Below are positions 1,468 to 54,046 of a stretch of DNA of 64,000 bases, one piece after another. Below the pieces are notes generated by a model, which made no database searches, was not told the origin of the DNA, and saw only the letters and a list, made by a program, of their open reading frames with translations. The DNA comes from Alphaproteobacteria bacterium (GTDB lineage Bacteria > Pseudomonadota > Alphaproteobacteria > TMED109). Made by a program: the position numbers and the translations under genes. The stretch's first letter is position 1, and each line of letters begins with the position of its first letter. The DNA is taken from contig JAJDZX010000037.1 of NCBI GenBank assembly GCA_022824395.1, positions 114,985-178,984 of the forward strand. The letters run 5' to 3'.

Positions 1468-1837
1468 CGTGCCAGACGGCCTGTAAGCCGGGTTCTGTCG
1501 AGGATGGCCATTCATCTCGGGCGCGCGTTGCCGCGCGTCTCGTGCGACCGGCCCGGACGGAGGCGGAAACACCTTCAGCCTGTCGCCAGGCCTCGCCGTC
1601 CCTATTCGGTCTTGCTCCCGGTGGGGTTTACCGTGCCGTCTCCGTTGCCGGAAACGCGGTGCGCACTTACCGCACCGTTTCACCCTTACCGGCCCGCAAG
1701 CGAGCCGGCGGTCTGTTTTCTGCGGCACTGTCCCTGGAGTCACCTCCGCCGGGTGTTACCCGGCACCGTGTTTCCGTGGAGCCCGGACTTTCCTCCCCCG
1801 GGAAGCCCCGGGAGCAGCCATCCGGCCGTCTGGCAAT
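1468..1837 (-). ncRNA. rnpB: RNase P RNA, bacterial class A
   Basis: The reverse complement contains GGAGGAAAGTCCGGGCTCCA, GGTAAGGGTGAAACGGTGCGGTAAGTGCGCACC, GGTAAACCCCACC and ACAGAACCCGGCTTA. P1 is closed by CCAGACGGCC (5') pairing with GGCCGTCTGG (3'). The ends are approximate to within a few nt. Confidence 0.93.
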
Positions 1838-51452: not shown

Positions 51453-51527
51453 GCCGGCGTAGCTCAACGGTAGAGCACCCGCCTTGTAAGCGGAAGGCTG
51501 CAGGTTCAAGTCCTGCCGCCGGCACCA
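51453..51527 (+). tRNA. tRNA-Thr (anticodon UGU)
   Basis: Hand-folded as GCCGGCG-TA-GCTC-AACGGTA-GAGC-A-CCCGC-CTTGTAA-GCGGA-AGGCT-GCAGG-TTCAAGT-CCTGC-CGCCGGC-A-CCA. It is 75 nt with an encoded CCA and one mismatch at the top of the anticodon stem. Confidence 0.88.
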
Positions 51528-51565: not shown

Positions 51566-52159
51566 ATGATCCACTTTAGGGCCGCAGGACTCCTGTCCGT
51601 CGCCCTCGTCGTGGCGGCAACCGTGCCGGCGAGCGCCGACTGGGCCGAAGTGCGGCGTGCCTTTGAAGATGGTGATGCCGTGGCACTCGTGGCCGCCCTG
51701 CAGCCGCTGGCGGAGACCGGTGACGCCGACGCGCAATACAACCTGGGGATCTTGTACGACACCGGCCAAGGCGTTCCGCAGGACTATCGCGAAGCGGCCA
51801 GGTGGTATGGCATGGCGGGCGATCAGGACCACGCCAGCGCTCTGTACAACCTCGGCCTGCTGCATTTCGAGGGCAAGGGCGTCGAGCGCGACGAGGTGAA
51901 GGCCATCGGGCTGTACCGCCGGGCGGCACGGCACGGCGATGCCGACGCGCTCAGCAGCATCGGATACATGTTCCTCCACGGAATCGGTGTCGAGGAGAAC
52001 CAACTCGAAGGGCTGGCGTTTTTCCTGCTTGCGGCCGAACGCGGAAGCAGCAGCGGCGCGCACAACCGGGACAACGTGCTGGGCAGGTTTGACACGAATG
52101 ATTTCGCGTTCGCACGCGCCCGGAGCCGTGACCTGGCCGTGGAGTATCCTGCGCCATGA
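51566..52159 (+). CDS. Sel1-repeat (SLR/TPR-like) secreted protein
   Basis: 197 aa with a signal peptide. It has repeated GDADAQYNLGILYDTGQGVPQDYREAARWY and ..ALYNLGLLHFEGKGVERDEVKAIGLYRRAA.. units. Confidence 0.85.
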   Translation: MIHFRAAGLLSVALVVAATVPASADWAEVRRAFEDGDAVALVAALQPLAETGDADAQYNLGILYDTGQGVPQDYREAARWYGMAGDQDHASALYNLGLLHFEGKGVERDEVKAIGLYRRAARHGDADALSSIGYMFLHGIGVEENQLEGLAFFLLAAERGSSSGAHNRDNVLGRFDTNDFAFARARSRDLAVEYPAP

Positions 52160-52509
52160 GGTTCGCGGACTGGCTGGCGGCGGTGTCGCTGACGCTGGCG
52201 GCGGGCGGCGCCACCGCTTCGCCTCAGGCCTGGCCGGAGTGCCGGGCCGCGGTCCAGGATCTCCTGGCGACCAATACCCTGGCCTTCTGGGCGTCCGCGG
52301 AGGGCGGTACGCTCCGGTACACCATGCGCATCGATGCCGAACGCTGGGACAACATGGGACCCGCGGGCCAAGACGGTCTCGAGGCCCTACTGTCCTGTTC
52401 GATCAGCGCCGGCGGCGAAGCCGTCCCGTACCTTCTTTCCGTACGGTCCGCGTACTCCAACCGCGAGCTCGCGCGGTACCACGACGGCGAGCGCCTACCA
52501 CTCGATTGA
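52156..52509 (+). CDS. Hypothetical secreted protein
   Basis: 117 aa with signal peptide ..LTLAAGGATA and an ATGA overlap with the Sel1 gene stop. I recognise no motif. Confidence 0.55.
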   Translation: MRFADWLAAVSLTLAAGGATASPQAWPECRAAVQDLLATNTLAFWASAEGGTLRYTMRIDAERWDNMGPAGQDGLEALLSCSISAGGEAVPYLLSVRSAYSNRELARYHDGERLPLD

Positions 52510-52534
52510 CCGTATCCCCCAAGGAGAACCATCC

Positions 52535-52765
52535 ATGTCCCAGACCTCCGATGACCGGCCCATGCTGGAGCGGCTCCGTGATCTGCACGAGAAGATGGAA
52601 CACGACGCCGAGATGGAAGCCGCCTACCTGAAAGACCGGGACGCCTTCCATCGTTCCCACGGATTCAATCCGGAGGAGGTCGAGGAGGCGCTGGAGGAAC
52701 TCGGCCGCCAACGGATCGCCGGCTACAAAGGCGTCCTGGAGGCCCACGGCAAGAAGCTCTCGTAA
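52535..52765 (+). CDS. Hypothetical small acidic protein (76 aa)
   Basis: This is the tail of ORF 52334..52765. The ATG at 52535 follows the strong RBS AAGGAGA (52521-52527). The translation is MSQTSDDRPMLERLRDLHEKMEHDAEMEAAYLKDRDAFHRSHGFNPEEVEEALEELG.. Confidence 0.6.
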   Translation: MSQTSDDRPMLERLRDLHEKMEHDAEMEAAYLKDRDAFHRSHGFNPEEVEEALEELGRQRIAGYKGVLEAHGKKLS

Positions 52766-52949
52766 TACGCGTGATGTCGAGGCTTCCGCCGGTCTGACCA
52801 GCGCCGTCCGCAACCGAACGCCAACACGGCGTGCCCCCGGCGAAAGCGACGACCCTGGACCGGGCCCGGTCGAGATGACCGGTCGTTGAGGGTCATGTCG
52901 ATCCTGCTCCCTGCCGGCGCTCACGCGGCGCCGGCAGCATGTCGGGGCA

Positions 52950-53262
52950 TGGTGCGGACGGAGGGACTCGAACCCTCACTCTCCATCGGAGAAACGGATT
53001 TTCGTACCACTTCGGCTTTCGCCGCCGCGCCGAAGGCACGTTCGTGGTCTGGACTATCCCTTCGCCATCGCCGCAGAGCCGGCCCCAGGCGCCGCCCGTC
53101 TAGTCTCTACACCTTCCTGCACGGATGCAGGCTTGGCTCGGGATCAGCAGCGGCGCAGCCGGTGAGCCTTCCCCGAATTTGAGCGGTTCTGCACTGCCGG
53201 TTTCCCAGCAGGCACTCAACGTCCCGCAAGTCCGTCGCGTCTGCCAATTCCGCCACGCCCGC
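52950..53262 (-). tRNA. Split tRNA-Leu (anticodon UAA): exon 1 at 53262-53228, group I intron at 53227-53003, exon 2 at 53002-52950
   Basis: Exon 1 reads GCGGGCGTGGCGGAATTGGCAGACGCGACGGACTT. Exon 2 reads AAAATCCGT-TTCTCCGATGGAGAGT-GAGGGTTCGAGTCCCTC-CGTCCGC-ACCA. Joined, they form an 88-nt class II tRNA with a 7-bp acceptor stem (one G-U), anticodon stem ACGGA/TCCGT, loop CTTAAAA, a long variable arm and an encoded CCA. Confidence 0.9.
53003..53227 (-). ncRNA. Group I intron (IC3-like, tRNA-Leu(UAA) type), 225 nt, no ORF
   Basis: It begins GCGGGACGTTGAGTGCC, where GAGU can pair with exon ACUU to give the splice-site U-G. It ends ..GTGGTACG with a terminal G. It contains GCTCAAATTCGGGGAA, GATCCCGAGCCAAGCC, GGAAGGTGTAGAGACTAGACGGG, AAGGGATAGTCCAGACC and a GCGAAAGC tetraloop hairpin. 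These match, from memory, the conserved core of the cyanobacterial/plastid tRNA-Leu intron. Confidence 0.85.
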
Positions 53263-53290
53263 AGGCCCCGCCGGGGATCATACCGATCCG

Positions 53291-54046
53291 CTACGGTTCC
53301 TCGCGAAATGGTGCTCCCTGCCGGGTCAGAAACTGGCGCACTGCGTCGGCGCACAGAGAGAGCCGCTCGGGATCAACGGCGCGCAGCACGAGGCTGGTTC
53401 CGATGTCCGGGGGGCGATAGAAGGGGTAGGAACCGATATCAACGTCGGTGAACTCGCTCGCCACGGCCGCCAGGGCCTCCGCGACCGCGCCCTCGGGCCG
53501 CCGCACCACGAAAGTGTGCGAACGGAGTGGCGGCCCGCGGACCAGCTGCGGTTCCAGGACCGCCAGCATGGCCTGCATGATTTCCGGGACACCGGCAAGG
53601 ACGAAGACGTTGCCGAGCCGGAAGCCGGGCGCGGATGACACCGGATTGTCGATGAGGGTCGCCCCCACCGGAATGTTCGCCATCCGGAGCCGGGCCTCGT
53701 TGAGTTCGATCTCCGTGCCCGCGTAGTGCGCACGGAGGCGACGGTGCGCCTCGGCGTTCCGCTCCACCTCGACACCCATGGCGGCCGCCACGCATTCCGT
53801 CGTGATGTCGTCGTGCGTGGGCCCGATGCCGCCGGTCGTGACGAGATAGTCCCAGGCCGCGGACAGTTCCCGAACTGCCGTGACGATCCGCTCCCGCACG
53901 TCCGGCACCACCCGCACCTCCATCAGCCGCACGCCGAGGTGCGACATCCGTTTCGCGACATGCGCGACGTTCTTGTCCTGCGTGCGGCCGGAGAGAATCT
54001 CGTTACCGATCACGAGCATTGCTGCAGTTGGGGCGTCTTGGGGCAT
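53291..54046 (-). CDS. CinA-like molybdopterin-binding (MoCF_biosynth) domain protein
   Basis: 251 aa. Contains AAMLVIGNEILSGRTQDKNVAHVAKRM..VTTGGIGPTHDDIT. Confidence 0.85.
   Translation of the reverse strand: MPQDAPTAAMLVIGNEILSGRTQDKNVAHVAKRMSHLGVRLMEVRVVPDVRERIVTAVRELSAAWDYLVTTGGIGPTHDDITTECVAAAMGVEVERNAEAHRRLRAHYAGTEIELNEARLRMANIPVGATLIDNPVSSAPGFRLGNVFVLAGVPEIMQAMLAVLEPQLVRGPPLRSHTFVVRRPEGAVAEALAAVASEFTDVDIGSYPFYRPPDIGTSLVLRAVDPERLSLCADAVRQFLTRQGAPFREEP

Follow-up and report, generated by a model that had tools for sequence, protein, structure and literature searches.

A probably functional tRNA-Leu(UAA) gene split by an IC3-type group I intron in a Rhodospirillales-like alphaproteobacterium

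The stretch of DNA analysed here (the window) comprises 64,000 nucleotides (nt) of contig JAJDZX010000037.1, from an alphaproteobacterial assembly. On its minus strand, between positions 53262 and 52950, the two halves of a tRNA-Leu gene flank a 225-nt insert, which an earlier note on this DNA took for a group I intron of cyanobacterial or plastid type. Is this a working tRNA gene with a splicing intron, and to which lineage does the intron belong? We hold with high confidence that the locus is a functional tRNA-Leu(UAA) gene of a Rhodospirillales-like alphaproteobacterium, split at U34/A35 by a 225-nt IC3-type group I intron without an open reading frame (ORF), and that this intron, one of a lineage found widely in Proteobacteria and Acidobacteriota, has been vertically retained in its clade. 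Judging from its sequence, the intron is genuine and probably functional; we infer that the gene is transcribed and spliced, and that it serves as the cell's working tRNA-Leu(UAA).

Results

A tRNA-Leu(UAA) gene interrupted in its anticodon loop

Read on the minus strand, the insert and its flanking exons (52950-53262) match the earlier description to the base. The exon and intron coordinates, the splice sites, the 88-nt tRNA-Leu(UAA) and the break at U34/A35 were all confirmed from the sequence and with ARAGORN. The gene has the following parts; for intron positions, the window coordinate equals 53228 minus the intron nucleotide number.

53262-53228, minus strand: tRNA-Leu(UAA) exon 1, GCGGGCGTGGCGGAATTGGCAGACGCGACGGACTT, 35 nt; acceptor 5' strand, D arm, anticodon-stem 5' strand and C32-U33-U34
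53227-53003, minus strand: group I intron, IC3-type, without ORF, 225 nt; starts GCGGGACGTTGAGT and ends GTGGTACG
53002-52950, minus strand: tRNA-Leu(UAA) exon 2, AAAATCCGT...CGTCCGCACCA, 53 nt; A35-A36, anticodon-stem 3' strand, long variable arm, T arm, acceptor 3' strand, A73 and CCA; ends in ACCA, the CCA being encoded

Joining the exons in silico gives an 88-nt RNA that ARAGORN calls tRNA-Leu(taa), with a 7-bp acceptor stem, a long variable arm and a GGTTCGAGTCC T arm. At the exon junction ...GACGGACUU is followed directly by AAAAUCCGU..., so that the intron sits between U34 and A35 (CUU/AAAA) above a 5-bp anticodon stem, ACGGA/UCCGU. Insertion at 34/35, the long variable arm, A73 and the anticodon UAA, as read by ARAGORN on the spliced 88-mer, are the marks of the Leu.3Ug class of intron-split tRNA genes. 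Exon 1, and indeed the whole 313-nt gene, is the same in five independent metagenome contigs.

The intron ends in G (G225 at 53003) and holds no ORF, as had been claimed. Two mechanically listed ORFs, 52886..53182 on the plus strand and 53100..53354 on the minus strand, overlap the locus; neither matches Pfam, and the earlier opinion that both are spurious stands. With no homing endonuclease ORF within its 225 nt and no Pfam match for the overlapping ORFs, the intron does not qualify as a mobile group I intron of the endonuclease-bearing kind.

Structure and covariation of the intron

The P1-P9 structure was drawn by hand and tested on an alignment of the window intron with 59 homologues (60 sequences). 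Its elements, all on the minus strand, are:

53214..53231, minus strand: P1, the 5' splice-site helix; exon A-C-U-U (53231-53228) with intron G11-A12-G13-U14 (53217-53214), including the U-1.G11 wobble
53191..53213, minus strand: P2 hairpin with GAAA tetraloop, nt 15-37
53181..53186, minus strand: P3 5' strand, nt 42-47, pairing with nt 131-136
53111..53176, minus strand: P4-P5-P5a-P6-P6a domain, including CCCGAGCCAAGCC, nt 52-117
53101..53107, minus strand: P7 5' strand with bulged A, nt 121-127 (121 and 123-127 pairing with 172-177), part of the guanosine-binding helix
53092..53097, minus strand: P3 3' strand, nt 131-136
53063..53091, minus strand: P8/P8a, nt 137-165
53051..53056, minus strand: P7 3' strand UAGUCC, nt 172-177
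53006..53048, minus strand: P9 with P9a and GAAA-capped P9b, nt 180-222
53003, minus strand: terminal G (omega G), nt 225, directly before the 3' splice site

With the P3/P7 pseudoknot included, 94.3% of the alignment cells are paired in the drawn structure, against 31-42% when the pairs are slid by one to three columns. Compensatory changes on both sides occur in 47 of the 69 pairs, and none of 500 shuffles reaches any of the observed measures. P3 is 99.7% paired, with four of its six pairs compensatory; P4 (nt 52-57 with 85-90) is paired in 99.7% of cells, and P5 and P6 (nt 91-93 with 115-117) in 100%. All six pairs of P6a (nt 97-112) and eight of the nine in P2 show compensatory changes. 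P7, which forms the pseudoknot with P3, is 100% paired through three invariant and three compensatory pairs, and P8 (nt 137-140 with 162-165) is 99.6% paired. P9 (nt 180-184 with 218-222), P9a and P9b reach 96%, 91% and 99%, each with compensatory changes, while P5a is not conserved in this alignment (54.9% of cells paired). P2 and P9 are also present in the minimum free energy (MFE) fold.

The U-G pair that the earlier note proposed at the splice site, from exon ACUU and intron GAGU, was recovered as U-1.G11. This pair is U.G in 56 of the 60 aligned homologues and C-G in four, the latter being Leu(CAA) genes. Across the homologues U-1 and the G-C pairs of P7 are invariant or nearly so. The terminal G is found in 60/60 aligned homologues and 109/109 extracted introns, a constancy imposed by the search, since its pattern sets the intron end at GAAAA. 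The note had also pointed to the strings CCCGAGCCAAGCC, GGAAGGTGTAGAGACTAGACGGG and GGGATAGTCCAG and to a GAAA-capped hairpin; they lie in the intron at nt 86-98, 111-133, 168-179 and 204-215.

U-1 in a U.G pair together with a terminal G, and a conserved core made of P3-P8, the P3/P7 pseudoknot and the P4-P6 domain and backed by covariation, place the insert among the group I introns. Within these it agrees with subgroup IC3: a compact 225-nt anticodon-loop intron with no P5abc extension, no ORF and short P5a, P6a, P8a, P9a and P9b only. Leu.3Ug, Arg.5Ug, fMet.2Ug and Ile2.5Ug are the four classical categories that a group I intron database marks as IC3 (Williams 2020, bioRxiv 10.1101/2020.01.27.920355).

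P8 is the single element in which the intron is unusual. It reads CCUGGG...GAUGG in the window and CCUAAG...UAUGG in most homologues; the CCUGGG form, with a GA(U/C)GG partner strand, is common to all four clade relatives described below (L247-L250). The usual form CCUAAG...UAUGG is presumably the 11-nt GAAA-tetraloop receptor. The clade-specific CCUGGG/GAYGG may be a functional variant of this receptor. A further homologue, L093, has CCUGGG...UAUGG.

Membership: profile and Rfam searches

A nucleotide profile built with nhmmer from the 59 homologues, the window excluded, finds a single match in the window, at 53234-52996 on the minus strand (176 bits, E=1.8e-53). Of 111 columns conserved to at least 90% in the other homologues, the window keeps the consensus in 110 and departs from it in one, which falls in P8. 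Shuffled versions of the window give an expectation of 0.00 for the search pattern. Chance resemblance was rejected on this expectation and on the profile E-value. The intron is 63-78% identical to the seeds of Williams.

The earlier note had proposed Rfam RF00028 as a check, with the lack of a significant hit as a refutation. A permissive Rfam search matches RF00028 at 53237-53029 on the minus strand (full-length, model positions 1-253, 27.3 bits, E=4.9e-5), which is below the gathering score of 50 bits. Ten homologues (L247-L250, L077, L024, L073, L008, L064 and L021) were scored with the same model: nine reach 26.8-46.4 bits, all below 50, and the tenth, L021, gives no RF00028 match at E<=1. 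Since the homologues are sub-threshold too, the low score of the window is not evidence against membership; the curated cut-off is too high for this intron class and misses it as a whole. The refutation proposed in the note is not a fair test here. No bacterial introns are among the Rfam group I seeds, and cut-offs of about 18-20 bits have been used instead (Williams 2020, bioRxiv 10.1101/2020.01.27.920355).

The intron groups with proteobacterial and acidobacterial introns

Among the matches listed in the genome scan described below, those most similar to the window intron, with 81-83% identity, all come from Alphaproteobacteria: Caulobacteraceae (L077), Phenylobacterium (L024 and L007), Paracoccus (L073), Rhodovulum (L008) and Brevundimonas (L083). 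Identity to the proteobacterial/acidobacterial set, 108 homologues among the matches listed, averages 0.74, with a maximum of 0.83. For comparison, a metagenome scan with the cyanobacterial core form GGTGCAGAGACT.GACGGGAGCTACCC provided at least 98 tRNA-Leu(UAA) introns of cyanobacterial type with a median guanine-plus-cytosine (GC) content of 46%. Identity to the 82 cyanobacterial-type introns of at most 300 nt is 50-68%, with a mean of 0.60, both sets in this comparison being picked by pattern and differing in base composition.

A neighbour-joining (NJ) tree of 138 sequences (p-distances over 209 well-aligned columns) splits the cyanobacterial-type introns and the Synechococcus seed from all others in 98/100 bootstrap replicates; among these others are the window intron and the seeds from tRNA-Arg, Thr, Lys, Ile2 and fMet. 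Proteobacterial introns of other tRNAs are likewise closer to the window intron than the tRNA-Leu intron of Synechococcus is: full-length identity is 75% for Thr.3Ug, 75% for Arg.3Ug and 74% for Arg.5Ug, but 63% for Synechococcus. Since both identity (at most 68% against up to 83% for alphaproteobacterial introns) and the NJ split place the intron elsewhere, the label "cyanobacterial/plastid-type" of the earlier note is true only for the insertion site and the IC3 subgroup and fails for sequence lineage. The phylogenetic comparison that the note had called for, run here as NJ, groups the intron with proteobacterial and acidobacterial introns and not with those of cyanobacteria and plastids. 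By sequence, it belongs to the proteobacterial/acidobacterial lineage.

Comparison with known introns

The closest known system is the non-cyanobacterial Leu.3Ug intron (seed Ncf2.Leu.3Ug; Williams 2020), which interrupts the same tRNA at the same CUU/AAAA site and has the same U-1, terminal G and helices. It shares the core strings GUAGAGACUAGACGGGC, GAUAGUCCAGACCAC and GGCGGCGAAAGCCG with the window and is 78% identical over the full length; the window differs only by species and by the clade-specific P8 (CCUGGG...GAUGG for CCUAAG...UAUGG). The tRNA-Leu(UAA) introns of cyanobacteria and plastids (Anabaena, Synechococcus; seed Sel1.Leu.3Ug) have the same site, IC3 architecture and U.G pair, with a similar P4-P6 string (CCYGAGCCAAGC) and P7. 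They differ in carrying GCAGAGACU where the window has GUAGAGACU, and in a P9 that reads AAUUCUC... where the window has CCAGACCAC...; moreover, they are AT-rich (median GC 46%, against 67% for the window intron) and 50-68% identical to it.

The IC3 intron of Azoarcus tRNA-Ile(CAU), for which a structural model exists (PMC13168695), contains an identical 21-nt J6/7-P7-J7/3 string, GAAGGUGUAGAGACUAGACGG, the same helix set and a GAAA loop on P2. It differs from the window intron in its tRNA, its loop site (Ile2.5Ug), a simpler P9 and its shorter length, and full-length identity is 63%. The tRNA-Arg(CCU) intron known from Agrobacterium and from Bartonella (BbgpI, PMC7717549) comes from the same host class and the same IC3 family, and the seed Rur1.Arg.5Ug is 74% identical, but both the tRNA and the loop position are others. 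The Bartonella intron splices in vivo and in vitro, and its host tRNA gene had gone unannotated (PMC7717549). Finally, the Leu.3Cg introns of tRNA-Leu(CAA) in Beta- and Gammaproteobacteria (Williams 2020; seed Bba346 71% identical) are homologous and occupy the same loop position; they have C-1 in a C-G P1 pair and the anticodon CAA, where the window has U-1.G.

Distribution of the class

One genome per GTDB species was scanned with a degenerate P7-P9 pattern followed by GAAAA, which gave at least 120 loci; these were typed by exhaustive in-silico splicing and ARAGORN. Among the 120 matches listed, at least 108 are split tRNA-Leu genes with the junction after nt 34, 101 of them UAA (U-1) and seven CAA (C-1). 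Twelve loci had no Leu call in the first pass. Eight of these were re-examined with longer introns allowed: three (L057, L081 and L092) give a tRNA-Leu(UAA) call once longer introns or other ends are admitted, and three (L010, L012 and L019) are cut by the edge of the sequence stretch. By record title, the hosts of the 120 matches listed are 54 Alpha-, 12 Beta- and 15 Gammaproteobacteria, nine unclassified Proteobacteria, 18 Acidobacteriota and 12 others.

Intron-split tRNA-Leu(UAA) genes are therefore common in Proteobacteria and Acidobacteriota. The earlier note held that they are only sporadically reported in proteobacteria; this does not agree with at least 101 such genes among the matches listed, mostly from Proteobacteria, nor with the fact that the class is already catalogued. 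A self-splicing tRNA-Leu(UAA) intron was reportedly described in a gamma-proteobacterium by Vepritskiy et al. in J Bacteriol in 2002. The present locus is a further member of this catalogued, widespread class in a different species, one of an uncultured Rhodospirillales-like lineage. A bioinformatic catalogue counts 5292 intron-split bacterial tRNA genes, with Leu.3Ug as a classical class and 72 Leu.3Cg, all in Proteobacteria (Williams 2020, bioRxiv 10.1101/2020.01.27.920355).

Two kinds of locus in the scan deserve mention in their own right. The seven Leu(CAA) genes (L011, L026, L029, L050, L052, L116 and L049) are split at the same loop position with C-1 in a C-G P1 pair; they come from Beta- and Gammaproteobacteria and one metagenome-assembled genome (MAG) labelled "uncultured cyanobacterium", and match the Leu.3Cg of Williams, their splicing being putative. 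L057 (a Chloroflexi MAG) and L081 (a Bacilli MAG) are candidate split tRNA-Leu(UAA) genes whose introns, much longer at about 690 nt, would have room for an ORF.

Host, gene neighbourhood and inheritance

The tRNA gene lies beside a cinA-like gene and a hairpin:

53291..54046, minus strand: cinA-like (MoCF_biosynth) gene, Pfam PF00994 and PF24102; its stop lies 28 nt upstream of the tRNA
52911..52937, minus strand: GC-rich hairpin, 10-bp stem and 7-nt loop, CTGCCGGCGC / GCGCCGGCAG; starts 13 nt past the CCA, with no T run

The tRNA may be co-transcribed with the cinA-like gene. The cinA-like protein occurs in identical form on five metagenome contigs; its closest named relative belongs to a "Rhodospirillales bacterium" MAG (88% identity), and the next named ones, at 54-63%, to Indioceanicola, Azospirillum, Niveispirillum, Rhodospirillum centenum and Thalassospira. 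The host is proteobacterial, as the earlier note supposed, and both synteny and the best protein matches point to a Rhodospirillales-like member of the Alphaproteobacteria.

Four relatives (L247-L250), whose cinA-like proteins are 74-88% identical, agree with the window in gene order and in the site of the intron, which all four possess. Their genes are 81-93% identical to that of the window at the nucleotide level, and the substitutions fall in loops or are compensated in stems such as P2, P6a and P9. In eight more distant alphaproteobacterial loci, too, the cinA-like gene adjoins an intron-bearing tRNA-Leu gene. An Azospirillum MAG (L066) has the intron. Azospirillum thermophilum CP029353.1 has an intron-less tRNA-Leu(UAA) (L254:3067-3152, plus strand) about 790 nt downstream of the cinA-like gene, and in three other Rhodospirillales no tRNA-Leu lies within 1.5 kb of that gene. 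The distribution of the intron is patchy at the order level and stable within the clade.

The GC content of the intron is 0.667, against 0.666 for the window and host, and over 109 loci the GC contents of intron and host are correlated (r=0.79), a pattern more in keeping with a long stay in the host than with a recent import. The intron is vertically retained in the Rhodospirillales-like clade.

The GC-rich hairpin may, by its sequence, act in transcript termination or in RNA processing, and the convergent gene ending at 52765 would share it.

The gene is missed by routine annotation

The earlier note expected standard annotation to overlook the gene, and it does. Default ARAGORN does not find the tRNA-Leu in the window, its sole tRNA call being a tRNA-Thr, and Rfam at gathering score has no intron or tRNA match at the locus, reporting in the window only the tRNA-Thr and RNase P RNA. 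Because both miss it, the tRNA-Leu(UAA) is invisible to routine annotation. tRNAscan-SE 2.0 is not designed for detecting self-splicing group I introns (PMC8450103). The intron option of ARAGORN was tried and rejected: it called the locus tRNA-Arg(gcg) with a 215-nt intron and a wrong junction, and exhaustive in-silico splicing was used in its place. A real case of a spurious ORF was met in the public assembly of one clade relative, where a 62-aa gene is called across the intron (L250:2489-2677, minus strand; intron at about 2403-2636).

Discussion

We propose, on the basis of established group I chemistry and of the Anabaena, Azoarcus and Bartonella precedents, that the gene is expressed as follows. 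The precursor would be transcribed, possibly along with the upstream cinA-like gene, and the intron would fold into P1-P9 while the 5-bp anticodon stem keeps the exons together. An exogenous guanosine bound in P7 would attack just 3' of U-1, which its U.G pairing in P1 keeps in place. The terminal G225 would then replace the guanosine at the same site and the freed 3'-OH of exon 1 would attack the 3' splice site, so that CUU is joined to AAAA, giving the mature 88-nt tRNA with its anticodon loop CUUAAAA restored. Given the intact core, ordinary group I self-splicing is the most likely course.

Several observations weigh against a functional, self-splicing gene. The locus is known here from its sequence, and our view of the genome is a 64-kb window, so a second intact tRNA-Leu(UAA) may lie elsewhere. 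The RF00028 score does not reach the curated cut-off. A consensus scan called no sigma-70-like promoter or intrinsic terminator, the hairpin at 52911-52937 included. The MFE structure recovers most helices, although its z-score of -0.21 is uninformative for an RNA of 67% GC. P8 lacks the receptor-like CCUAAG/UAUGG motif, and one tertiary contact might thereby be weakened; conservation within the clade makes it likely that this change is tolerated or compensated.

Some of these points would suit a decaying pseudogene, in which the intron no longer splices and another tRNA-Leu(UAA) serves the cell: the 27.3 bits with RF00028, the altered P8 and the limits of the 64-kb view could all be read in this sense. 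We find this highly improbable. Every core helix is intact and 110 of 111 conserved columns are kept, the substitutions in the relatives are compensated rather than random, the P8 variant is common to them, the low Rfam score is typical of the class and the tRNA exons are canonical. The altered P8 also bears on another possibility, namely that the intron is real but splices efficiently in vivo only with a host protein as cofactor, and is not truly self-splicing under physiological conditions, as the change may remove an L2-P8 tetraloop-receptor contact. Helpers are presumed for group I introns in vivo in the part of PMC7717549 that cites the review of Hausner et al. (PMC3984707). However, the compact IC3 introns of tRNA genes that have been assayed to date splice by themselves in vitro (Bartonella, PMC7717549; Azoarcus, PMC13168695), and the remaining core and the L9b GAAA loop are canonical, so we regard a need for a cofactor as unlikely, though less so than decay.

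As for the origin of the intron, a recent horizontal acquisition from a cyanobacterium or plastid would explain the common U34/A35 site, the IC3 architecture and the core strings shared with the seed Sel1. It is hardly credible in view of the identities (mean 0.60 and maximum 0.68 for 82 cyanobacterial-type introns, against 0.74 and 0.83 for proteobacterial and acidobacterial ones), the NJ split at 98/100, the alphaproteobacterial affiliation of all the nearest introns among the matches listed, the agreement of intron and host GC and the synteny in four clade relatives. Vertical retention of a proteobacterial/acidobacterial intron within the clade is the reading that we keep. A broader proposal is tempting, and we advance it with considerable doubt: the U34/A35 intron would not be a cyanobacterial invention, but an ancient and largely vertical intron of Alpha-, Beta- and Gammaproteobacteria, Acidobacteriota and Cyanobacteria with repeated losses, the Rhodospirillales-like clade being one of many vertical carriers. 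Subtypes that track host class, GC that tracks the host and syntenic retention fit this proposal without proving it; yet in an Azospirillum species the gene near the same neighbour is intron-less.

Our results open no new biological question, as the class, its mechanism and its patchy distribution have already been described. Their value is mostly practical. The intron class is common and falls below the RF00028 cut-off, which is useful to know for annotation pipelines: a genome such as this one would seem to be without tRNA-Leu(UAA), as default tRNA finders and the curated Rfam cut-off miss the gene, and gene callers can lay false ORFs over the split tRNA, as seen in the assembly of one relative.

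Other features of the window

Downstream of the tRNA, at 52156-52765 on the plus strand, lie a Sel1-repeat gene and two small conserved genes, of 117 aa and 76 aa, in which Pfam recognises no domain; the order of all three is kept in the relatives L247-L250. Two further RNA genes were found by standard tools:

51453-51527, plus strand: tRNA-Thr(UGU), the sole tRNA that standard tools find in the window
1468-1833, minus strand: bacterial RNase P RNA class A, full-length, 306.9 bits

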